A stretch of DNA of 64,000 bases from Bryobacterales bacterium (lineage in GTDB: Bacteria > Acidobacteriota > Terriglobia > Bryobacterales > UBA6623), in NCBI GenBank assembly GCA_963422375.2, contig OY729427.2, positions 128,001 through 192,000 of the forward strand, written 5' to 3'. The notes under the pieces were generated by a model, which worked only from the letters and a program-made list of their open reading frames with translations, was not told where the DNA came from and ran no database searches. Below, in pieces: positions 5,356-64,000 of this stretch (position 1 is its first letter; each line of letters begins with the position of its first letter). The position numbers and the translations under genes are program-made.

Positions 5356-5664
5356 ATGAGGAATCGCAACTTTGGATCAGACGAAATTGCCGCACGATGT
5401 CGCTTGCTTTCCCACAGGATTCTTGAGGATGAACTTCTCGCTTGTAAACCTGATTCCGAGTTGAGTTCAGCGCTCATGGGTCTTGACGATACTTGTACAG
5501 ATGATGTGAGTGTTGAGGAATTGAAAGACTATCTTAGCAAGAAAAAGAACAAGACTACCTATGCGGCAAGGCTGGCTAGGGCTCTGGCCGCCAACAAGAT
5601 CCGCGGAGACCGTATTCTTAAACCATTCAGGGACGCAATCGTATACTTGGGAGAAGCAGCATGA
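5356..5664 (+). pseudogene. C-terminal remnant of a probable OLD-family/TOPRIM nuclease (GajA-like)
   Basis: Lower-GC fragment ILEDELL...LKDYLSKKKNKTTYAARLA...FRDAIVYL whose stop overlaps the UvrD start (ATGA); no ATPase N-terminus upstream. Confidence 0.5.
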
Positions 5665-7053
5665 CTGGTCTTGACCTTAACCAGTCCCTAGCCACTCTTA
5701 CTGATGTTCAACGTCGTGCGGTCGAGTGGGACACCGGGGCCTTGCTTGTACTGGCGGGTCCGCGATCTGGGAAGACTCAGGTACTAGCATGTCGAATCGC
5801 AAGGCTGCTGGATGCGTCACGAGACAGTCACTTTCGAATTCTAGGTTTGACCTTCACCAACAAGGCAGCTGATGAAATGAAGGTTCGTGTCCGAAATCTT
5901 GTCCCTGGACTACAACGACGGGCCAACATAGCTACGTTTCATGGATTCTGCGCTCAGGTTCTCCGTCAACATGGTGCCCACATCGGCATTCGCTCGGACT
6001 TTACAATATATGCCCTGGAGGCTGATCGCAGAGCCGTATTGAAAGATGCATTGCAACGTGCCGAATCACAAGGAGTGCCCGCATCTTCTGATGACATGTG
6101 GTATTTGACACTCATTGATCGTGTCAAATCCAAGCTAGTGTTCCCTGATGATGTCACTTCAGCCATGACTCACTTCCATGACGTCCAAAAGGTCAAGCTG
6201 GTCTATAGACTCTATGAGGAGGAACTTCGTCCACTTAATGCACTTGACTTTAGTTCCCTACTACTCGAAGCATACAGATTGATCCAAACATATCCAGCCT
6301 TCTCAAGGAGATATCTCCGGGTATACCCCTACTGGATGGTTGACGAGTTTCAAGATACAAGTAGACCGCAATATCACTTCTTGAAAGCAATGTCAGGCGA
6401 TCAGTTCAATGACATCTTCGTTGTTGCGGACGATGACCAGATTATTCTTCGGTGGAACGGGGCAAGCTATGAAACTATCGTGGATTTCGTTGATCACTTC
6501 AAGGCAGAGGTGATTCAGGTTTCCTCCAATTACAGGTGTCCCCCATCGATCATCGGTGCTGCAAACACGCTTGTCGCACACAACACTCAGCGGACAGTTG
6601 GAAAGCAACGGATCAAGCCTGTTAGAATTGAACATGCAACCCCAGCCTCACGGATCCGTGTAAGAGTTTTCGAGACCGACAAAAAGAAGCGGATGGAGTT
6701 GCGACCGAGATTGCTACGATGGGTGCTGGACACTGGGGCAGAATTGCTGTTTTGGGTAGAATGCGTGCTCTCTTGGATCGATTGCACCATGCTTTGAACG
6801 AGCAGGACGTCCCAAGCCACCTCGCTCAGCGACGCAATGAATTCCTGTCTCCTGAGATCCGCTGGTTTAGCTCGTCACTCCCCCAAGTGAACCGGCCTAT
6901 GGACCTGCGTAATTTGCGTAACCTAGTCGAATCGTTCAACGACTTCGGCCGACTCGCGATCAACCTAGATGATGTTGTGTCAGAGTCCAGTCTAACCGGA
7001 AAGAGTTTTTTAAGTCGTGGCTCAGCATTGTAAGTAATAGGGTTGCAGGGAAG

Positions 7054-7083
7054 CCCATCAGTACGATTCCCATCAGTACGATT
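7054..7083 (+). repeat. 15-bp tandem duplication (CCCATCAGTACGATT x2) in the helicase pseudogene
   Basis: Read directly; encodes PISTI-PISTI. Confidence 0.9.
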
Positions 7084-7364
7084 CTTGATCACATGGATCG
7101 CCTTGCGATGGATCAGTCCAATTCGCTGCAATTGGCGAAAGATGTCATCGAGCTATTCTCCTCACATACTAGAGAACGAGGAGATGACCCGGACTTTAAT
7201 GAAGACATTCGTCTGTGGCGTCAACTCTTTGGCGATCTACGCTCTCATTATGGTGTCGCGGTGCGCCTGAGTGAGATTGTCCACGAGGTCCAACTCCGCT
7301 CAAAGGCACCTGATCCTCCCAAGGACGTGGTAACGCTGATGACGATTCATGCGGCAAAGGGAAA

Positions 7365-8397
7365 CCTGATTACCAACGAACGTCAGCCGAGGATATGCTA
7401 TACTGGAGGAGGTCGGAAATCTCTGACAGGAAAGGGGCTAGCAGATGAAACGCAATCGCGTGCAATTCCAGAAGGGACTCAGCGCGGGCAAGTTCCTGCA
7501 GCGCTACGGCAGCGAGGGGCCATGCGAGCAGGCCGTCTGCAACGCCCGCTGGCCGGACGGCTTCCGCTGCCCGGAGTGCGGCTCCCGACGGCACTGCCGC
7601 ATCCGCTCCCGCAAGCTCCGGCAGTGCCATGCCTGCCACCGCCGGACCTCCCTCGTCGCCGGCACGATCTTCGCCGCCAGCAAGCTGCCGCTGACCGTCC
7701 GGTTGCTGGCGCTCCACCTGCTGACGCAGGGCCAGCACGGCGTTTCGTCGCTGGAACTGGCGCGGCAGCTGGGGGTCAGCCGGAACACGGCTTGGAAGAT
7801 GAAGCACAAGCTCTTGCAAGTGATGAAGGAGCGCGACGAGCGCCTGCCGCCGGGCGGCATCGTGCAGGTGGACGACGCCTACCGGGGCGGGGAGCGGACC
7901 GGCGGCAAGCGCGGTCGCGGCGCGGCGGGCAAGACGCCGTTCGTGGCCGCCGTGCAGGTCAGCGCCGCCGGCCAGCCGGCAAGGATGCGCCTGAGCAGCG
8001 TGGCGGGCTTCCGCAAGAAGACGCTGGCAGCGTGGGCCGGGCGGCACTTGCAGCCCGGCACGGAGGTGCATTCCGACGGCTTGGCCTGCTTCCGGGGCGT
8101 GGCCGGCGCCGGCTGCGAGCACGTGCCGACCGTCACCGGAGGCGGGAAGCGGAGCTGCGCGGATTCCCGCTTCGTCCGGGTCAACACGATGCTGGGGAAC
8201 GTCAAGCAGTCCCTGGCGGGAACCTGCCATTCGTTCGACGGCAAGCACCTGCCGCGCTACCTCGCCGAGTTCCGCTACCGCTTCAACCGCCGCTACGATC
8301 TCGAGGCGCTGGTCCCCCGCCTGCTCCACGCCTCCGTGCGCACCCCGCCCATGCCTTACCGCCTCCTAACCTTGGCTGAGTCTTGTGGGTAATCAGG
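7365..8397 (+). mobile_element. IS1595-family element IS-A, copy A1 (ISSod11-like)
   Basis: Imperfect ~28-bp TIRs CCTGATTACC...GGTAATCAGG around a single transposase ORF. Confidence 0.92.
7445..8392 (+). CDS. IS1595-family DDE transposase (A1)
   Basis: Zinc ribbon CPECG...CHAC, VQVDDAY, GGKRGRG, HSDG and YLAEFRYRFNRR. Confidence 0.92.
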   Translation: MKRNRVQFQKGLSAGKFLQRYGSEGPCEQAVCNARWPDGFRCPECGSRRHCRIRSRKLRQCHACHRRTSLVAGTIFAASKLPLTVRLLALHLLTQGQHGVSSLELARQLGVSRNTAWKMKHKLLQVMKERDERLPPGGIVQVDDAYRGGERTGGKRGRGAAGKTPFVAAVQVSAAGQPARMRLSSVAGFRKKTLAAWAGRHLQPGTEVHSDGLACFRGVAGAGCEHVPTVTGGGKRSCADSRFVRVNTMLGNVKQSLAGTCHSFDGKHLPRYLAEFRYRFNRRYDLEALVPRLLHASVRTPPMPYRLLTLAESCG

Positions 8398-8630
8398 AAA
8401 GCCTTTTCCCAAGATACGGGCCATACTCAGTCGACTTCCTATTCAGGCTGCCATCATAGCAGCCCAGAGATAGAGTCTTGAATTCTAAAACTTAGGCCTG
8501 CATATTGTGATATACCGTAACTATCTACACAGTATATTGCGTACTTAAATTTGGAAGGCCTCCTTCTTAGCAGACTGCTTGGGAACTCAGTTGCCAGTAC
8601 ATTCTGGCCTGGCCGATCCGAAAAGACTTT
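8398..8630 (-). repeat. Captured MITE core (233 bp), reverse-complement copy of 57537-57569 + 59098-59297
   Basis: Near-identical by eye with a few substitutions; begins AAAGCCTTTTC and ends GAAAAGACTTT, the inner halves of the MITE TIRs. Confidence 0.92.
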
Positions 8631-9675
8631 CCTGATTACCAACGAACGTCAGCCGAGGATATGCTATACTGAAGGAGGTCGGAAACCTCTGACAGGAAAG
8701 GGGATAGCTGATGAAACGCAATCGCGTGCAATTCCAGAAGGGACTCAGCCTGGGCAAGTTCCTGCAGCGCTACGGCAGCGAGGGGCAATGCGAGCAGGCC
8801 GTCTTCAACGCCCGCTGGACGGACGGCTTCCGCTGCCCGGAGTGCGGCTCCCGCCGGCACTGCCGCATCCGCTCCCGCAAGCTCCGGCAGTGCCATGCCT
8901 GCCACCGCCAGAGCTCCCTCGTCGCCGGCACGATCTTCGCCGCCACCCAGCTGCCGCTGACCGTCTGGTTGCTGGCGATCCACCTGCTGACGCAGGGTAA
9001 GCACGGCGTTTCGTCGCTGGAACTGGCGCGGCAGCCGGGCGTGAGCCGGAACACGGCTTGGAAGGTGAAGCACAAGCTCCTGCAAGTGATGAAGGCGCGC
9101 GACGAGCGCGTGCCGCTGCACGGCATCGTGCAGGTGGACGATGCCTACTGGGGCGGGGAGCGGACCGGCGGCCAGCGCGGTCGCGGCGCGGCGGGCAGGA
9201 CGCCGTTCGTCGCCGCCGTGCAGGTCACCGCCGCCGGCCAGCCGGCAAGGATGCGCATGAGCAGCGTGGCGAGCTTGCGCAAGAAGACGCTGGCAGCGTG
9301 GGCCGGGCGGCACTTGCAGCCCGGCACGGAGGTGCATTCCGACGGCCCGGCCTGCTTGCGGGGCGTGGCCGGCGCCGGCTGCGAGCACGTGCCGACCGTC
9401 ACCGGAGGCGGGCAGCGGAGCTGCGGGGATTCCCGCTTCGTCCGGGTCAACGTCCGGGTCAGAACGATGCTGGCGCACGTCAAGCAATCCCTAGCGGGAA
9501 CCTGCCATGCGCTCGACGGCAAGCACCTGCCGCGGTACCTCGCCGAGTTCTGCTACCGCTTCAACCGCCGCTACCACCTGGAGGCGCTGGTCCCCCGCCT
9601 GCTCCACGCCTCCGTGCGCACCCCGCCCAGGCCTTACCGTCTCCTAACCTTGGCTGAGTCTTGTGGGTAATCAGG
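8631..9675 (+). mobile_element. IS1595-family element IS-A, copy A2
   Basis: Same TIRs as A1; carries a 12-bp in-frame duplication (RVNVRV). Confidence 0.92.
8711..9670 (+). CDS. IS1595-family DDE transposase (A2)
   Basis: Close paralogue of the A1 transposase; open frame of 319 aa. Confidence 0.9.
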   Translation: MKRNRVQFQKGLSLGKFLQRYGSEGQCEQAVFNARWTDGFRCPECGSRRHCRIRSRKLRQCHACHRQSSLVAGTIFAATQLPLTVWLLAIHLLTQGKHGVSSLELARQPGVSRNTAWKVKHKLLQVMKARDERVPLHGIVQVDDAYWGGERTGGQRGRGAAGRTPFVAAVQVTAAGQPARMRMSSVASLRKKTLAAWAGRHLQPGTEVHSDGPACLRGVAGAGCEHVPTVTGGGQRSCGDSRFVRVNVRVRTMLAHVKQSLAGTCHALDGKHLPRYLAEFCYRFNRRYHLEALVPRLLHASVRTPPRPYRLLTLAESCG

Positions 9676-10311
9676 AAGGGAAAAGAGTTTTCTGAGGTGT
9701 TCCTAGTTGGGTTGGCCGAGGATATATTGCCGTCGTACCAGAGCAAGAGAAGAGGTGATCGGAGTCCTGAGATGGAGGAAGAGCGTCGCATCTGCTACGT
9801 AGCGATTACTCGTACGATGGAGCAACTACACATCATCCGAGCGAAATCCTACAATGGAAGGCCTGGGAAGTCGTCGCGATTTCTGCGAGATATGGGCTTG
9901 GAACGCACGTTTGACAATTAGGGTACCTATAGTTTATCCGAAAAACCACGCACGTCGGATTGCACGCTCTCAGGCCACTATGACGTACGGCCTTGTCCAT
10001 GGATGACTATCATCACTAAACGTCACTTCGATTGCACAGTCGCGTCGGATCGATACTCCAACTTGGGCGACCATGGTCCCGTGGCCAGCGGACGCGGAGT
10101 GGGAGCGAGAAGGCGTCGCTAGACGCACGGCACTCCGAGGGTCCCACGGCCCATGTGTAGCGAGGAATCGAGTGGCTTGGGATCGCTGCTCAAACTGAAT
10201 CACAGACAGGCTGTCGATGGATCAGCTTCGTACGCTCTGCCGCAACAGGCTGGGTGAGTGGGACGCGCTGAACACGGCTAAGGTAGTGACGAGGGCATCT
10301 CCGGGGAGGCT

Positions 10312-53948: not shown

Positions 53949-54892
53949 AGCGTAAGCGGCCCGGCGGCGCCAGCTCGTTCGATCGCGCACGCGAGGAGTG
54001 TCGTACCGTGCCAAGGCACCGTCAGCACCGCTCCGCGGACGTCCCGCGACCCGCCGATGTTGCGGTGACGCGACACTGCTTGCTTAACCACAGGGCCGCG
54101 GCTCAGTCACGGCGCCACGACCGTCCAATGGTCGGCAACATCCGACCAGCTAGGATTGCTTTGGCCCGGCCATGCCGAGTGTACCGCACCTCGGCCGAGA
54201 TCCGGATTCCACTGTTCATGAAGACGATCCATTTCCCTCTCCACCGCACTTCACTGAAGACTTCATTTCACACGCCAGACCCTCATTCTCGGCTTCACCA
54301 CGAGTCTGCGTTGAATCGCCAGCGTCGCCAGTTCTGTCCGAACAAGAACATCCTGTCTCTCACTCCAGCAATAGTAATTGTGCTTCGCCACATTGCCAAG
54401 AACAGCGCTATCACTGCTTCGTTTGATATGATTTCCGATTTCTAGCCATGCTTTCGTCAGGTGGATTGCAATGGGAATTATATATCTGAGTGCCGACAAC
54501 GCCATATCCGACTAGAACTGCTGTGAGCAGGGAGGTGGGTGTCGAGCTGGGGTCATGCGAGTGCGGCCGCGGCGGGCACAGAGGGGTGGGGTGTGGGATC
54601 GTATCTGAATCGAGCCTGCCAGCGGATTTGATGAGGAAGGGACTAGAGAGGCCGCCGCGCATGCCCCGGTTGCCCCGGTTGCCCCGGTGGAACCCGGTTG
54701 GCGGTGGCAGGGCACCCCTTGCAAGCCCTGCGAGGGCCGAAGACAGCGGTTCCCCGGCGCTCGACGGCCTGCATGGACGGTCCGGACCGGACCGGGGTCG
54801 CGCCGGGGCCTTCCGGATCCGGTGCACCCCTCGTACCGAGCGTGCAGCGCGCGCCCGCAGCGGGCTGCCGCGCTCGGCGCGGCGGGCGCCGC

Positions 54893-55849
54893 TCAGGCCG
54901 CGACCGCGGCCTTGCCGGTCAGCTGCCGGCAGGTCAGCGTCCGGCCGACCAGGCCCCGCGCCATGCGCCGCATCCGTTCCGCCGTGTCGCAGTCGCGGTC
55001 GTTGCGCCGTCCCGCGAACTCCGTGAGGTAGCGGCCGAGATGACGGACGCTCATCCGGTGATAGGTTCCGTACAGGCCGCGCTTGAACAGGGACCCAAAC
55101 GATTCGATGCCGTTCGCATGCGCTGCCCCGCGCACGTACTCGCCGCCGGAGTGCCTGACAGCTTCGTGCGAGAACTCCGCCATGCCGGCGCAGGCCGCCG
55201 CCTCGTCGGAGTAGACCTGCGCGCCCGGCGCGACCCGGCCGCGCACGAAGCCCTGCAGGTCGCCCTTGGCGGTGCCCGGCAGCGGCCGCGCGGCCACTGC
55301 GTTCGTGGCGCGGTCCCGCGCCCCCGCCACGGGCGTCTTGCCGACGGGCCCGCGCCCGGCACGGGCCTTCTTCCTCTCGTGCTTGTTGCGCTCCTTGCCG
55401 CCGACGCAGGTCTCGTCCACCTCCACCGGGCCGGCGAACAGGCCCCGATCCCGCTGCCAGCACGCGCGGATGCGGTGCGCCAGGTGCCAGGCCGACTTCC
55501 GGCTGATGCCTAGGTCGCGGTGCAGCTTCATGCTCGAGACGCCCTTGATGCCGGTAGTCAGCAGGAACAGGGCGACGGCCCGGGTGCGGTAGCCGAGCTT
55601 GGTGTCGGCCATCACGCTGCCGGTGCGCACCGAAAAGCGCTTGCCGCAGCCGCGGCAACGGTACGGCATCGAAGGGTGGGCCGCGTCGGACTGCACGCTG
55701 GATCCGCGGCAGCGGGGGCACGCGGGACCGTCCGGCCAGCGCATGGAGGCGAACCACTTTTCCGCGGATTCGTCATCGCGGAACATGGCGATCACTTCCA
55801 TCAATGTGATGCCTTTACGGAACCACTTTCCGGGACCTGATTTCTTCAT
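54893..55849 (-). CDS. IS1595-family transposase (B1, ISPna2-like)
   Basis: CPRC...CRGC, VSSMKLHRDLG, VEVDET, YSDE, NGIESF and YLTEFAGR. Confidence 0.92.
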   Translation of the reverse strand: MKKSGPGKWFRKGITLMEVIAMFRDDESAEKWFASMRWPDGPACPRCRGSSVQSDAAHPSMPYRCRGCGKRFSVRTGSVMADTKLGYRTRAVALFLLTTGIKGVSSMKLHRDLGISRKSAWHLAHRIRACWQRDRGLFAGPVEVDETCVGGKERNKHERKKARAGRGPVGKTPVAGARDRATNAVAARPLPGTAKGDLQGFVRGRVAPGAQVYSDEAAACAGMAEFSHEAVRHSGGEYVRGAAHANGIESFGSLFKRGLYGTYHRMSVRHLGRYLTEFAGRRNDRDCDTAERMRRMARGLVGRTLTCRQLTGKAAVAA

Positions 55850-55872
55850 TTACGGTATCCCCTACTGGAACT

Positions 55873-55902
55873 ATTCTACCAAGAAACACCACAGAATGTC
55901 AA
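55873..55902 (-). promoter_or_regulatory. Sigma70-type transposase promoter in IS-B
   Basis: TTGACA-N18-TAGAAT with extended TG; both boxes are conserved in B2 (58975-59004) and B3 although the spacer differs. Confidence 0.7.
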
Positions 55903-55954
55903 CGGAAAGTCGGAAGAAATATGAAATCTTATTATGGCTTGATAATTTGCCGAC

Positions 55955-55983
55955 TTGATTCCCTCGGCACTCAGATATATAAT
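55955..55983 (+). promoter_or_regulatory. Outward-facing promoter candidate at the B1 end
   Basis: TTGATT-N17-TATAAT pointing at the ATG at 56032. Confidence 0.5.
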
Positions 55984-56444
55984 TCCCCTTGCAATTCCAG
56001 TCCAATCCACTACGACATGAGGTTGGACGTCATGTCAGATACGCGAACTGAGTTGCCAGTTGAAGTCTTCCAAGCACTGAGGAGCGGCTTTTTCCAGGCT
56101 GGCGGGACACCGAAAATCTACAAGATACGAGACAAGAAAAACACTCAAGATGACCCGATCGACGAATACATCCATAGCATTCTTAGTACCAAGCTAGCAC
56201 CTAATATCACTACTACAAAGTCATCTGGACCTCTGATTAACCCTGACATGGTGATCTACCGACCGAAGTCTTGTGATTTCGTTTCACGTACAATCTTAGT
56301 ATCTGATTCCACCAGAATATTCGGATTCGAAGTGAAGAAAATTGAACGGCAGCCTTCTGGTTCCGTGGCCCGGTCATCTGGATTGGACTACAACACAACT
56401 CCGCCATGCGGTACGATGCGCGTACTGAGGGGCGCAAAAGTCTT

Positions 56445-57536
56445 CCTGATTACCCACAAGACTCAGCCAAGGTTAGGAGGCGGTAAGGCCTGGGCGGGGT
56501 GCGCACGGAGGCGTGGAGCAGGCGGGGGACCAGCGCCTCCAGATCGTAGCGGCGGTTGAAGCGGTAGCGGAACTCGGCGAGGTACCGCGGCAAGTGCTTG
56601 CCGTCGAGCGCAGGGCAGGTTCCCGCCAGGGACTGCTTGCCGTTCGCCAGCATCGTGTTGACCCGGACGTTGACCCGGAAGAAGCGGGAATCCCCGCAGC
56701 TCCGCTGCCCGCCTCCGGTGACGGTCGGCACGTGCTCGCAGCCGGCGTCGGCGACGCCCCGGAAGCAGGCCGGGCCGTCGGAATGCACCTCCGTGCCGGG
56801 CTGCAAGTGCCGCCCGGCCCACGCTGCCAGCGTCTTCTTGCGCAAGCTCGCCACGCTGCTCATGCGCATCCTTGCCGGCTGGCCGGCGGCGGTGACCTGC
56901 ACGGCGGCGACGAACGGCGTCCTGCCCGCCGCGCCGCGACCGCGCTTGCCGCCGCGCCGCGACCGCGCTTGCCGCCGCGCCGCGACCGCGCTTGCCGCCG
57001 CGCCGCTCCCCGCCCCGGTAGGCGTCGTCCACCTGCACGATGCCGGCCAGCGGCAGGCGCTCGTCGCGCTCCTTCATCACTTGCAAGAGCTTGTGCTTCA
57101 CCTTCCAAGCCGTGTTCCGGCTCACGCCCAGCTGCCGCGCCAGTTCCAGCGACGAAACGCCGTGCTTACCCTGCGTCAGCAGGTGGATCGCCAGCAACCG
57201 GACGGTCAGCGGCAGCTGGGTGGCGGCGAAGATCGTGCCGGCGACGAGGGAGCTCCGGCGGTGGCAGGCATGGCACTGCCAGAGCTTGCGGGAGCGGATG
57301 CGGCAGTGCCGTCGGGAGCCGCACTCCGGGCAGCGGAAGCCGTCCGGCCAGCGGGCCTTGAAGACGGCCTGCTCGCATGGCCCCTCGCTGCCGTAGCGCT
57401 GCAGGAACTTGCCCAGGTTGAGTCCCTTCTGGAATTGAACGCGATTGCGTTTCAGCTGCTATCCCCTTTCCTATCAGAGATTTCCAACCTCCTTCAGTAT
57501 AGCATATCCTCGGCTGACGTTCGTTGGTAATGCAGG
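56445..57536 (-). mobile_element. IS-A copy A3 with inactivated transposase
   Basis: TSD AAAGTCTT (56437-56444 and 57537-57544); start ATG>CTG, frameshift from a 23-bp triplication, and a 1-bp insertion in the left TIR. Confidence 0.92.
56928..56996. repeat. 23-bp tandem repeat x3 in A3
   Basis: GCCGCGCCGCGACCGCGCTTGCC x3; single copy in the other IS-A elements. Confidence 0.92.
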
Positions 57537-57569
57537 AAAGTCTTTTCGGATCGGCCAGGCCAAAATGTA

Positions 57570-59089
57570 GGGAATTATATATCTGAGTGCCGACAACGCC
57601 ATGTCCGACGAGAACTGCTGTGAGCAGGGAGGTCGGCGTCTGGCTCGGGTCATTCGAATGCGGCCGCGGTAGGCACAGCAAGGTGGGATCGTATCTGAAT
57701 CGAGCCTGCCAGCGGAATTGACGAGGCACGGATTAGAGAGGCCCCCTCGCATGCCCGGTGGAATCCGGTTGGCGGTGGAGGGCACCCCTTGCAAGCCGCT
57801 TGCGTGCCCTGCGAGGGCCGAAGACAGCGGATCCCCGGCGCTCGACGGCCTGCATGGACGGTCCGGGCCGGACGCGGGTCGCGCCGGGGGATTCCAGAGC
57901 CGGCGCGCCCCTCGCACCGAGCGTGAAGCGCACCGAGCGTGAAGAGTGCGTCGGCAGCGGGCTGCGGCGCTCGGCTCGGAGGGCGCCGCTCGGGCCGCGA
58001 CCGCGGCCTTGCCGGCCAGCTGCCGGTAGGTCAGCGTCCGGCCGACCAGGCCCCGCGCCATGCGCCGCATCCGTTCCGCCCTTGTTCCGCCGTGTCGCAG
58101 TCGCGGTCGTTGCACCGTCCCGCGAACTCCGTCAGGTAGCGGCCGAGATGACGGACGCTCATCCGGTGATAGGTTCCGTACAGGCCGCGCTTGAACAGGG
58201 ACCAAAACGACTCGATGCCGTTCGTATGCGCTGCCCCGCGCACGTACTCGCCGCGGGAGTGCCTGACGGCTTCGTGCGGGAACTCCTCCATGCCGGCGCA
58301 GGCCGCCGCCTCGTCGGAGCGGACCTGCGCCCCCGGCGCGACCCGGCCGCGCACGAAGCCCTGCAGGTCGCCCTTGGCGGTGCCCGGCAGCGGCCGCGCG
58401 GCCGCTGCGTTCGTGGCGCGGTCCCGCGCCCCCGCCACGGGCGTCTTGCCGACGGGCCCGCGCCCGGCGCGGGCCTTCTTCCTCTCGTGCTGGTTGCGTT
58501 CCTTGCCGCCGACGTAGGTCTCTTCCACCTCCACCGGGCCGGCGAACAGGCCCTGATGCCGCTCCCGGCACGCGCGGATGCGGTGCGCCAGGTGCCAGGC
58601 CGACTTCCGGCTGATGCCCGGATCGCGGTGCAGCTTCATGCTCGAGACACCCTTGATGCCAGTGGTCAGCAGGAACAGGGCGACGGCCCGGGTGCGGTAG
58701 CCGAGCTTGGTGTCGACCATCACGCTGCCGGTGCGCACGGAAAAGCGCTTGCCGCGGCAACGGTACGGCATCGAAGGGTGGGCCGCGCCGGACTGCACGC
58801 TGGAGCCGCGGCAGTGGGGGCATACCGGACCGTCGGGCCAGCGCATGGAGGCGAACCACTTTTCCGCGGATTCGTCATCGCGGAACATGGCGATCACTTC
58901 AATCAGAGTGATGCCTTTACGAAACTACTTCCCGGGACCTTTCTGCTTCATAGACGACCTCATATATCGGAACTATTCTACCAAAATAATCCACCGACTG
59001 TCAACAGATCTCCGGAAGAAATATGAAATTAATTTATGGACTGATAATTTGCAAAATCGGTTGCCTCGGCACTCAGATATATAATTCCC
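57570..59089 (-). mobile_element. IS-B copy B2 inside the MITE core, inactivated transposase
   Basis: TSD AAAATGTA (57562-57569 and 59090-59097); early TGG>TAG, 6-bp deletion in the zinc ribbon and an 11-bp 3' insertion. Confidence 0.92.
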
Positions 59090-59297
59090 AAAATGTACTG
59101 GCAACTGAGTTCCCAAGCAGTCTATCAAGAAGGAGGCCTTCCAAATTCAAGTACGCAATATACTGTGTAGATAGTTACGGTATATCACAATATGCAGGCC
59201 TAAGTTTTAGAATTCAAGACTCTATCTCTGGGCTGCTATGATGGCAGCCTGAATAGGAAGTCGACTGAGTATGGCCCGTATCTTGGGAAAAGGCTTT

Positions 59298-60330
59298 CCT
59301 GATTACCCACAAGACTCAGCCAAGGCTAGGAGGCGGTAAGGCATGGGCGGGGTGCGCACGGAGGCGTGGAGCAGGCGGGGGACCAGCGCCTCCAGATCGT
59401 AGCGGCGGTTGAAACGGTAGTGGAACTCGGCGAGGTACCGCGGCAGGTGCTTGCCGTCGAGCGCATGGCAGGTTCCCGCCAGGGACTGCTTGACGTGCGC
59501 CAGCATCGTGTTGACCCGGAAGAAGCGGGAATCCTCGCAGCTCCGCTGCCCGCCTCCGGTGACGGTCGGCACGTGCTCGCAGCCGGCGCCGGCCACGCCC
59601 CGCAAGCAGGCCGGGCCGTCGGAATGCACCTCCGTGCCGGGCTGCAGGTGCCGCCCGGCCCACGCTGCCAGCGTCTTCTTGCGCAAGCCCGTCACGCCGC
59701 TCATGCGCATCCTTGCCGGCTGGCCGGCGGCGCTGACCTGCACGGCGGCCACGAACGGCGTCTTGCCCGCCGCGCCGCGACCGCGCTTGCCGCCGCTCCG
59801 CTCCCCGCCCCGGTAAGCGTCGTCCACCTGCACGATGCCGCCCGGCGGCAGGCGCTCGTCGCGCTCCTTCATCACTTGCAAGAGCTTGTGCTTCATCTTC
59901 CAAGCCGTGTTCCGGCTGACGCCCGGCTGCCGCGCCAGTTCCAGCGACGAAACGCCGTGCTTGCCCTGCGTCAGCAGGTGGAGCGCCAGGAACCGGACGG
60001 TCAGCGGCAGCTTGGTGGCGGCGAAGATCGTGCCGGCGACGAGGGAGGTCCGGCGGTGGCAGGCATGGCACTGCCGGAGCTTGCGGGAGCGGATGCGGCA
60101 GTGCCGGCGGGAGCCGCACTCCGGGCAGCGCAAGCCGTCCGGCCAGCGGGCCTTGAAGACGGCCTGCTCGCATGGCCCCTCGCTGCCGTAGCGCTGCAGG
60201 AACTTGCCCGGGCTGAGTCCCTTCTGGAATTACACGCGATTGCGTTTCATCTGCTATCCCCTTTCCTGTCAGAGATTTCCGACCTCCTCCAGTATAGCAT
60301 ATCCTCGGCTGACGTTCGTGGGTAATCAGG
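59298..60330 (-). mobile_element. IS-A copy A4 with an early nonsense codon in the transposase
   Basis: TSD AAGGCTTT (59290-59297 and 60331-60338); CAA>TAA at codon 7. Confidence 0.92.
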
Positions 60331-60829
60331 AAGGCTTTTGCGCCTCTCAGTATATGACTCCTCAAGCAAGATTCTTGACATCAAGGGATTCTACCTATTC
60401 CTGTGCCAAGAACAACAAGCAACTTCCAGTTCCACTTATTTTGTTAGTGCCCTCGTTCTTTGTGACGGCGACTTGTTGAATGAAGACTTTGACTACTATG
60501 TCTCAATCATGGAACGTCGATCAAAGGAAATCCAACTCGGCTCATACGGAGACGGTGCCAATAGGATCCGTCCGATGATGATTTTTGCGAATCCGCTGGG
60601 AGCATCGTTTCTAGATTGGCACTCGACACTGATCCATGATTCATCTGATCTCGATTCCAAGCACGATAACCTACAGAAAGTCGGCGGAATTGAACGTACA
60701 GTCTCGACAACGAATGACGGACAACGTGCAACCAGAGAGTTCCATTGCTATCGGGAAATCCGCGACCTGCCAAACATCGCTGCTGCTGATGCAAATCCAC
60801 TGTTTCATGAGATTGACCCGTTCCCAACC

Positions 60830-61700
60830 GAGACGCTCGCGGTTGCGCACCCGGGCCGGCAGCAGGAAGGCCAGCACCAGCAGGGTCGAGTGCAGGCCGT
60901 AGAAGCCCTTGCCGACCCTCAGCGCGCCCAGGTGGCCGAGCAAGCCGGCCTGCAACAGGGCGGGCAGGGCCGCCAGGACGCCGCCCTCGGCCACCGCCGC
61001 GGCCGGCGCGAAGCTCGGAGCACGCTCCTCCAACTGGCCGAGACTGGCCAAGGCGCGACCCTGCGAGTCGCAGGTGGCCCGGCCCCGGGGCACGATCGCG
61101 TCGCGGCGGCTGCGCTCCTCGCGCCCCGGAGCCGGCGGTTGCTCCGCGACACTCGCCGCCCCGGCGGGTGCGGGCTCTTTTTCGGTCGCGGGGGCCTCCA
61201 CGGTCGCGGGGGCCTTCTCCGTCGCGGGCACCTCGGGGTCGCCAGGGCCTGCTCGGCGGGGAGCGCCGCGGCGAGCGCCGGGATGCCGGGCAGGCGACCG
61301 ATCCGCTTGTACTGGCGCAGGGTCTCGTAGCACGCGCCCAGCTGGCGCGCCGCGCGGCGCAGGACGTCCTCGTCCTCGATCCCGTGCCGACGGCGCGGGC
61401 GGCGCGGGCAGTCGAAACCGGCCGGGCCCTACTGCTTGAGGCGCTCCACGTCCCGGCGCACCGTGCGCGCGCAGACCCCGCCAGCCCGCGCCAGTTGCGC
61501 CGGCGTGGCCAGCTGCATGTGCGCCAAGTGCGCCAAGTGCGCCATGCAGCGGCGAGCGGCGCGGCGGTCGTCCGCTGCTTGCATGTCGAGCGGCGAGATA
61601 TCGAGGTAGTAGTACACGCGGTCGCCGTCCCGGAGCATGCTCGGGCGCTGGTTGACGGGGGTGGCCTCGGCGGGCTGCAGGCCGAGCGATCCGGGCACGC
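60830..61700 (-). pseudogene. N-terminal remnant of a large HTH-containing putative transposase (unclassified IS)
   Basis: EATPVNQ...VYYYL...AQLARAGGVCARTVRR...*GPAGF, then ERSRRDA...GGVLAALPALLQAGLL...GFYGLHSTLLVLAF; internal stop, frameshift and truncation. Confidence 0.65.
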
Positions 61701-61949
61701 CGCGGGGCGTCTGCGAGAGCTCCGAGCTCCTGTAAGTGAGCTTACCATGCCTGCCTGGGAAGCGCAATGCACTTTCACATGATCGGAAGATAAATTTGTG
61801 AAATTCAGAGAGAAGCGCATCATTTTCTCGAGTTGACACGGCAGAATCCAGTAGAATATCGAGTTATTCTGCCATAAAGTTGTTCTTATACTGGTCTGTA
61901 ATGTGGCGGTGAAAAACTGTCAAACTGTTATGATACAGTCATTTTAATT

Positions 61950-64000
61950 GGGAATTATATATCTGAGTGCCGACAACGCCATGTCCGACGAGAACTGCTC
62001 TGATCAGGGAGGTCGGCGTCTGGCTCGGGTCATTCGAATGCGGCCGCGGTAGGCACGGAAAAGTGGGATCGTATCTGAATCGAACCTGCCAGCGGAATGG
62101 ACGAGGCACGGATAAGAGAGGCCCCCCTCGCATGCCCCGATGGAATCCGGTTGGCGGTGGAGGGCACCCCTTGCAAGGGGAATTATATATCTGAGTGCCG
62201 ACAACGCCATGTCCGACGAGAACTGCTGTGAGCAGGGAGGTCGGCGTCTGGCTCGGGTCATTCGAATGCGGCCGCGGTAGGCACAGCAAGGTGGGATCGT
62301 ATCTGAATCGAGCCTGCCAGCGGAATGGACGAGGCACGGATAAGAGAGGCGCCCTCGCATGCCCGGTGGAATCCGGTTGGCGGTGGAGGGCACCCTTTGC
62401 AAGCCGATTGCGTGCCCTGCGAGGGCCGAAGACAGCGGATCCCCGGCGCTCGACGGCCTGCATGAACGGTCCGGGCCGGACGCGGGTCGCGCCGGGGGAT
62501 TCCAGATCCGGCGCGCCCCTCGCACCGAGCGTGAAGCGCACCGAGCGTGAAGAGTGCGTCGGCAGCGGGCTGCGGCGCTCAGCTCGGAGGGCGCCGCTCA
62601 GGCCGCGACTGCGGCCTTGCCGGTCAGCTGCCGGTAGGTCAGCGTCCGGCCGACCAGGCCCCGCGCCATGCGCCGCATCCGTTCCGCCCTTGTTCCGCCG
62701 TGTCGCAGTCGCGGTCGTTGCACCGTCCCGCGAACTCCGTGAGGTAGCGGCCGAGATGACGGACGCTCATCCGGTGATAGGTTCCGTACAGGCCGCGCTT
62801 GAACAGGGACCAAAACGACTCGATGCCGTTCGTATGCGCCGCCCCGCGCACGTACTCGCCGCCGGAGTGCTTGACGGCTTCGTGCGGAAACTCCGCCATG
62901 CCGGCGTAGGCCGCCGCCTCGTCGGAGCGGAGCTGCGCGCCCGGCGCGACCCGGCCGCGCACGAAGCCCTGCAGGTCGCCCTTGGTGGTGCCCGGCAGTG
63001 GCCGCGCGGCCACTGCGTTCGTGGCGCGGTCCCGCGCCCCCGCCACGGGCGTCTTGCCGACGGGCCCGCGCCCGGCGCGGGCCTTCTTGCTCTCGTGCTG
63101 GTTGCGCTCCTTGCCGCCGACGCAGGTCTCGTCCACCTCCACCGGGCCGGCGAACAGGCCCTGATGCCGCTTCCGGCACGCGCGGATGCGGTGCGCCAGG
63201 TGCCAGGCCGACTTCTGGCTGATGCCCAGGTCGCGGTGCAGCTTCATACTTGAGACGCCCTTGATGCCGGTAGTCAACAGGAACAGGGCGACGGCCCGGG
63301 TGCGGTAGCCGAGCTTGGTGTCGGCCATCACGCTGCCGGTGCGCACGGAAAAGCGCCTGCCGCAGCCGCGGCAACGGTACGGCATCGAAGGGTGGGCCGT
63401 GCCGGACTGCACGCTGGATCCGCGGCAGAAGGGGCATACCGGACCGTCGGTCCAGCGCACGGAGGCGAACCACTTTTCCGCGGATTCGTCATCGCGGAAC
63501 ATGGCGATCACTTCAATCGGAGTGATGCCTTTACGAAACCACTTCCCGGGACCTTTCTGCTTCATATACGACCTCACATATCGGAACTATTCTACCAAAA
63601 TAATCCACCGACTGTCAACAGATCTCCGGAAGAAATATGAAATTAATTTATGGACTGATAATTTGCAAAATCGGTTGCCTCGGCACTCAGATATATAATT
63701 CCCCTTGCAAGCCGATTGCGTGCCCTCCGAGGGCCGAAGACAGCGGATCCCCGGCGCTCGACGGCCTGCATGGACGGTCCGGGCCGGACGCGGGTCGCGC
63801 CGGGGGATTCCAGATCCGGCGCGCCCCTCGCACCGAGCGTGCAGCGCATCGAGCGTGAAGAGTGCGTCGGCAGCGGGCTGCGGCGCTCAGCTCGGAGGGC
63901 GCCGCTCGGGCCGCGACCGCGGCCTTGCCGGTCAGCTGCCGGCAGGTCAGCGTCCGGCCGACCAGGCCCCGCGCCATGCGCCGCATCTGTTCCGCCGTGT
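61950..64000 (-). mobile_element. IS-B copy B4 (outer copy, runs off the window), interrupted by B3
   Basis: TIR starts at 61950; the IS-B sequence resumes at 63704 after the nested copy. Confidence 0.9.
62178..63703 (-). mobile_element. IS-B copy B3 nested in B4
   Basis: TSD CTTGCAAG (62170-62177 and 63704-63711); the transposase from 63565 has the same 11-bp 3' frameshifting insertion as B2. Confidence 0.93.

Follow-up and report, generated by a model that had tools for sequence, protein, structure and literature searches.

The terminal inverted repeats (TIRs) of one mobile element can be the target of another. IS231A, of the IS4 family, inserts into the terminal repeats of Tn4430, which hold the best natural hotspot for its degenerate palindromic consensus. 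In the IS4321/IS5075 type, an IS110-family transposase acts through RNA-guided targeting, and the insertion blocks transposition of the host element. According to the part of the account available to us, IS4321 and IS5075 (IS110/IS1111 family) target the 38-bp TIRs of Tn21-subgroup transposons (bioRxiv 10.1101/2024.02.20.581145). The accessible sections of another source state that elements of the IS1595 family usually generate 8-bp duplications, and that an N-terminal zinc ribbon is present in all of its groups except IS1016 (PMC8101967). One member, ISApl4, is described in the available portion of its report as inserting preferably at A/T-rich 8-mers and as forming the pseudo-compound transposon Tn7560 (PMC12561309). 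Here we analyse a 64,000-nt stretch of a Bryobacterales genome (the window), in which two copies of an IS1595-family insertion sequence (IS), IS-A, sit at mirrored bases in the two TIRs of an IS630-type miniature inverted-repeat transposable element (MITE). We lean towards explaining this arrangement by a general palindromic target rule. Genome-wide counts refer to this one genome, which is assembled in 3 contigs. We found no report of such a consensus, or of a TIR hotspot, for IS1595 in the open-access literature, a search that did not cover subscription papers.

Results

Two IS-A copies in the TIRs of one MITE

The MITE (56425-60350, unstranded) measures 257 bp once its three insertions are subtracted, and has 23-bp imperfect TIRs and a TA duplication at 56423-24 and 60351-52. 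Its left TIR is interrupted by IS-A copy A3 (56445-57536, minus strand), whose transposase is frameshifted and one of whose terminal repeats contains an extra base, and its right TIR by copy A4 (59298-60330, minus strand), with a stop codon near the transposase start. A3 duplicated AAAGTCTT (56437-44 and, as the inner copy on the plus strand, 57537-57544) and A4 duplicated AAGGCTTT (59290-97 and 60331-38). As the first-pass annotation of this DNA had described, both octamers start 12 bp in from the respective MITE end, at TIR position 13; they comprise TIR positions 13-20 of the left and right end. Each bears the allele of its own TIR, T or C, so A3 and A4 are two separate events, which had also been claimed. 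The two copies have the same orientation in the sequence and hence opposite orientations with respect to the TIRs they occupy. Bases 1-20 of the outer left TIR (56425-56444, plus strand, containing AAAGTCTT at 56437-56444) are whole thanks to the duplication, and those of the outer right TIR (60331-60350, minus strand, containing AAGGCTTT at 60331-60338) are likewise complete.

The IS-A transposase scores 107.5 bits with PF12762 and 189.8 bits with NF033547 (cut-off 75), which identifies it as DDE_Tnp_IS1595, and the element has the terminal inverted repeats and the 8-bp duplication of the IS1595 family. The A4 frame, which is N-terminally truncated, is above the cut-off with PF12762 and reaches 21.7 bits against a cut-off of 25.4 with the zinc-ribbon profile PF12760; a CPECG...CHAC motif is visible in the intact transposase of another copy, A1. 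The CCTGATT end would place IS-A in the IS1595 subgroup, and its type can be described as a high-copy CCTGATTA-type IS1595. Genome-wide, 201 ends make up 107 records, 94 of them paired copies, and copies are 93-99.7% identical to each other. The 8-bp duplication is perfect in 50 of the 94 paired copies and has one mismatch in 5 more. It has at least 3 mismatches in 36, a number that includes some end-calling offsets, A3 among them; the unmatched flanks of these copies point to frequent IS-mediated deletions or rearrangements.

The MITE is of IS630 type: it duplicates TA, has its TIRs in common with an IS630 element and carries no transposase. TA precedes all 38 of the 38 outer TIR matches in the genome, which holds 13 MITE cores and four full-length elements sharing the TIR, three of 1153 bp and one enlarged by an internal IS-A. 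The transposase of the 1153-bp elements is of the IS630 family (NF033545, 178 bits), and their TIRs are exactly 20 bp long. The MITE thus resembles other IS630-family MITEs in its TA duplication and in sharing its TIR with an IS630 element of the same genome, and differs from them in that its exact parent is absent from the assembly, the closest full-length elements being 81% identical over 52 bp. The alignment of MITE cores is star-like, and no variant groups the copies hit on the right.

IS-A occupies about half of the MITE TIRs, mostly at one base

IS-A adjoins 15 of the 28 complete MITE-type outer TIRs (54%) and is absent from the remaining 13; a further hit TIR, which has lost its outer bases, is not among these 28. 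Of the 15 hits, thirteen lie at position 13 and the other two at position 14; they cover both TIRs and both IS-A orientations, so that IS-A shows the one fixed TIR position, at either end, that is typical of IS4321/IS5075. A second MITE with both TIRs hit lies at C2:1146039-1147222. Sorted by TIR side, IS orientation, position (13 or 14) and allele (T or C), plus the variant TIR, the junctions fall into 7-8 classes, the minimum of independent events (at least 7). Together with the 15/28 occupancy on both sides and in both orientations, these classes show that the preference for the TIR site is real and strong. The first-pass annotation had proposed it from the window alone, naming as the contrary case that other MITE copies are never hit there; other copies are hit. 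Insertion is not, as in the IS4321/IS5075 type, essentially confined to this site: 19 of the 107 IS-A records (18%) touch a MITE TIR and 88 lie elsewhere.

At C2:3334048-3335081 a lone IS-A lies between two outer TIR halves and the MITE core is missing, the layout expected from recombination between both IS-A of a doubly hit MITE; one of these TIR halves is itself interrupted by the end of another element.

A general palindromic consensus predicts the position

The target was read from 148 distinct half-sites, kept after 26 MITE and 16 second-hotspot half-sites had been excluded. It is a palindrome, CA-WWNNNNWW-TG, whose middle 8 bp are duplicated: C is found at -2 in 94 of the 148 and A at -1 in 129, and A or T occurs at duplication positions 1, 2, 7 and 8 in 146, 132, 131 and 146.

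With this MITE-blind matrix we scanned 20 starts in each MITE TIR. Position 13 scored highest in both (10.5 and 9.1) and position 14 came second (6.3 and 5.7), so that the two hits at position 14 fall at the predicted second choice. The mirrored insertion position thus follows from the symmetry of the TIRs and the consensus, to which they hold a good match at positions 11-22. Scored with a core matrix and local background, the TIR site reaches 7.9, a value equalled or exceeded at only 498 genome positions; 20 of 40 true targets attain it, which makes the TIR the median of true targets. In the parent IS630 element, the TIRs reach only 5.3 and -1.4 and took up IS-A in 0 of 8 cases, and one parent copy carries IS-A at an internal consensus site. 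An altered outer target core is found in 5/13 empty versus 1/15 hit MITE TIRs (p=0.07). The duplications show no excess of self-complementarity. In five congeneric genomes, related elements have similar flanks by eye.

Other families are hit repeatedly at one base. A 1742-bp IS (C2:440600-442350 and about 50 copies; ends CAGCGGTTCT... and ...GAGAATCGCTG) carries IS-A in mid-transposase in 10 of 27 copies, an occupancy not different from that of the TIRs (p=0.28). This hotspot, at position 879, is the sole good consensus match in the element, and copies lacking the CA carry IS-A in 0 of 12 cases (p=0.04). A third multicopy hotspot is hit in 4 of 13 copies (C1:74939 and related copies). With the parent TIRs unhit, an internal IS site hot and this third site hit, repeated insertion at the same base is not special to TIRs.

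The hit MITE retains 20 bp of each TIR and gave rise to a compound transposon

Because the duplicated octamer is TIR positions 13-20, an outer end retains bases 1-20 and loses only 21-23 of the 23 bp of the MITE TIR. The retained 20 bp equal the entire TIR of the parent in length, and at the level of sequence the MITE ends are not disabled, contrary to the first-pass annotation.

The annotation had also held that IS-A takes over the MITE, and had listed AAGGGAAA as a third target. The AAGGGAAA pair is indeed present, at 7357-64 and 9676-83; rather than a single IS, it encloses a compound transposon (7365-9675, plus strand) made of A1 (7365-8397), a MITE core (8398-8630) and A2 (8631-9675), that is, two IS-A around a passenger with one outer duplication. 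No other matching cross-copy pair of this type holds a MITE core. The compound core is 97.9% identical to the core of the window MITE (the other 11 cores, 91-95%) and has the alleles of that MITE at 12 of 12 informative columns, and A2 has 3 rare variants in common with A3, a number reached in 4 of 3916 pairs. The compound transposon derives from the doubly hit window MITE. It inserted 47 kb from its donor in a UvrD/Rep-like helicase gene, and the donor MITE kept its structure. Since the compound copy lacks IS-B, a second IS1595-family element present in the donor core, the order of events was the MITE, then A3 and A4, then the compound copy and lastly IS-B. Of the proposed takeover, then, it stands that the core moved once without the MITE ends; the event was a single compound transposition of the ordinary kind, and the 233-bp core that it moved is without genes. 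The helicase gene, split by the compound transposon, lies at 5622-7364 of the window, where its upstream part runs in several frames, and at 9676-9921.

IS-A copies are mosaics

We built a tree and analysed mosaicism from 89 full-length IS-A copies and 114 polymorphic columns. The tree is star-like, with 44 of 86 inner branches open and the TIR copies scattered over it. Linkage between columns falls to an r2 of about 0.02 beyond 25 bp, and a copy has a median of 2 private single-nucleotide polymorphisms. Such mosaicism leaves phylogeny unable to count insertion events; these near-random mosaics reflect either very heavy recombination between copies or an effect of polishing. Shared rare variants gave a signal in one of two positive-control pairs (A2/A3 but not A1/A4), which makes a missing signal in other pairs weak evidence.

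Relatives and metagenomes

IS-A-like DNA occurs in 25 of 60 other genomes, at about 70-75% identity at best. The TIR family was found in 2 of 30 congeners (G015 and G008), neither with a credible IS-A match, so they offer no outside test of the hotspot; no interrupted TIR was seen among those read in 16 loci of the two. G015 carries a related 1.17-kb element (L012-L039) with the same TIR type, TA flanks and 22 pattern matches, and its TIRs fit the IS-A consensus. Inspection by eye of the 42 matches to IS ends in 5 relatives revealed no flanking TIR, and the exact TIR pattern had 0 matches in metagenome contigs. When the TIR-IS junction pattern was loosened, 2 matches turned up in genomes and 16 in metagenomes; none of them had a tblastn hit to IS1595 or IS630, and we attribute them to chance. 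In two public runs (X1 and X2), which yield short contigs, no join shows the window locus without A3 or A4.

Other features of the locus

Four nested insertions make up the locus: the MITE, A3, A4 and IS-B. IS-B (57570-59089, minus strand) has the ends GGGAATTATATAT and the 8-bp duplication AAAATGTA at 57562-69 and 59090-97; it encodes an IS1595-type transposase, the protein being read from a neighbouring copy at 54896-55849. It inserted late in the MITE core, as the compound core at 8398-8630 does not contain it. What remains of the MITE core (59090-59297, unstranded) terminates in the inner A4 duplication copy AAGGCTTT (59290-59297). Further IS-B copies, including tandem and nested partial ones with common ends, lie at 54473-55987 and 61950-64000 of the window. 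The 219 IS-B end matches in the genome follow an A/T-rich 8-bp target pattern of their own, and none is at a MITE TIR.

The MITE interrupts at TA a host gene (56035-60820, plus strand) with reading frames on both sides. Its product has SwaI/HincII-like neighbours in ESM Atlas at 0.89-0.90 and no match in Pfam, and we treat its restriction-endonuclease-like character as a lead only. At 60820-61840 this frame continues into a GC-rich segment that resembles another mobile element.

Discussion

IS-A shares with IS4321 and IS5075, as far as the available part of their description goes, repeated insertion at one position of another element's TIRs, at either end, and differs from them in its IS1595 DDE transposase, in the way its 8-bp duplication renews the outer TIR, in the small share of its records (18%) that lie at TIRs, and in following a general consensus. 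It is without IS110-type targeting, given this transposase and a longest word of 7 bp shared between IS-A and the TIR, and the restored TIR bases 1-20 argue against a block of MITE transposition. With ISApl4 and Tn7560, to judge from the accessible portion of their report, IS-A has in common the IS1595 transposase, TIRs, 8-bp duplications, A/T-rich targets, high copy number and a two-copy compound; it is unlike ISApl4 in its putative N-terminal zinc-ribbon region and in a defined 12-bp palindrome with fixed outer CA/TG, ISApl4 targets being described as preferably A/T-rich only. The closest mechanistic analogy is IS231A in Tn4430, which differs in family, consensus and duplication length.

The explanation we find rather more convincing than the others is that a general palindromic target rule, applied to a site that is neutral and multicopy, produced the strong TIR hotspot; an excess is left that the rule does not explain. 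IS-A is an ordinary IS1595-family element that reads a short palindrome and duplicates its middle 8 bp, as the genome-wide flanks show, and the good match at the same place of both TIRs brings its hits to the same mirrored base. A selectively neutral, multicopy and unusually hot TIR site would then account for the at least 7 separate hits counted by junction types, with the extra heat probably coming from local DNA sequence or context. With bases 1-20 rebuilt, IS630 transposase may still be able to act on a hit MITE, and part of the 15 hits may have arisen by copying of earlier ones. Where both TIRs were hit in direct orientation, a standard compound transposon arose, whose core, by the duplication and the shared variants, was copied once into the helicase gene; IS-B entered the donor afterwards. 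Several observations weigh against this explanation. The matrix does not account for the high occupancy: the remaining multicopy consensus sites are hit in 21 of 277 cases when pooled (7.6%; 7/237 without the two other hot families), a rate that predicts about 2.1 hits for 28 TIRs, with P(>=7 hits)=0.006 and P(>=15)=8e-9. Within the MITE core, two sites with scores similar to that of the TIR are unhit (0/13 and 0/11), family ages differ and confound such comparisons, and no near-identical MITE::IS-A pair was found at different TA sites, so that amplification driven by IS630 is not demonstrated. In a post hoc comparison, flank GC is 57-72% in the three hot families and at most 48% in 9 of 11 cold ones; single-copy sites show the reverse trend (occupied 50%, empty 57%), possibly from GC-rich sites lying in genes under selection. 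The excess could be intrinsic hotspot strength or amplification of the carrier, and the two are inseparable in this genome. An account that we hold to be a minority possibility takes the latter course, in that a few TIRs were hit at a normal rate and the MITE::IS-A unit was then moved by IS630 transposase, or its junctions were copied by recombination. The intact TIR bases 1-20 would permit this, 6 MITE copies belong to a single junction class, that of the right TIR with the left IS end pointing outward, the mosaicism of IS-A, with its near absence of linkage, could have erased shared ancestry, and 2 of 12 within-class similarity tests gave p<0.05 uncorrected. Nevertheless, each of the 7-8 junction classes needs its own event, a minimum already above expectation at the pooled rate, same-class IS-A copies are over the whole element no more alike than random sets, and one TIR-borne copy has its nearest relative (98.9%) at a non-MITE site.

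A dedicated attraction, in which IS630-type ends draw the IS-A transposase beyond the consensus through bound IS630 transposase or the palindrome AAAAG-N-CTTTT, seems to us unlikely. It would suit a TIR occupancy that is the top of all families compared, the unhit core sites (p=0.001) and the second doubly hit MITE on C2, but it sits badly with the large majority of IS-A records elsewhere, the unhit parent TIRs, a non-TIR internal IS site that is statistically as hot, and a TIR-IS-A junction that was not found in the other genomes or metagenomes searched. The first three of these objections, together with the general consensus, speak against the TIR-specific targeting of IS4321/IS5075 type that the first-pass annotation had brought in as a parallel. 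Just 10 unoccupied instances of the A-tract palindrome exist in the genome, most of them probably in MITE TIRs, which leaves the effect of sequence inseparable from that of TIR identity here; a guide RNA is not indicated for IS-A, whose leader is 80 bp long and which has no word longer than 7 bp in common with the TIR. We would regard as equally doubtful the wider idea of a TIR-preserving parasitism, in which a second layer of target choice would draw an IS1595-family DDE transposase to IS630-type ends, the duplication would rebuild the host TIR, the IS would travel as a harmless passenger and doubly hit MITEs would become its compound transposons. That mis-joined repeats created or multiplied the IS-TIR junctions is very improbable: the paired IS-A copies with poorly matching duplications, some of them end-calling offsets, and the resemblance of copies to random mosaics would fit such an artefact, but the genome is in 3 contigs, the outer TIRs have differing flanks, and the window locus has four perfect nested duplications (TA and three 8-mers), with a host frame that runs on across the empty site.

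The genome offers a target consensus that is well sampled (148 half-sites) for a member of the IS1595 family, and it clearly documents how hotspots that a consensus creates within other mobile elements lead to nested and compound transposons in nature. Should the TIR excess turn out to be dependent on IS630 transposase, this would reveal, for a DDE family, a new way in which one transposon targets another.

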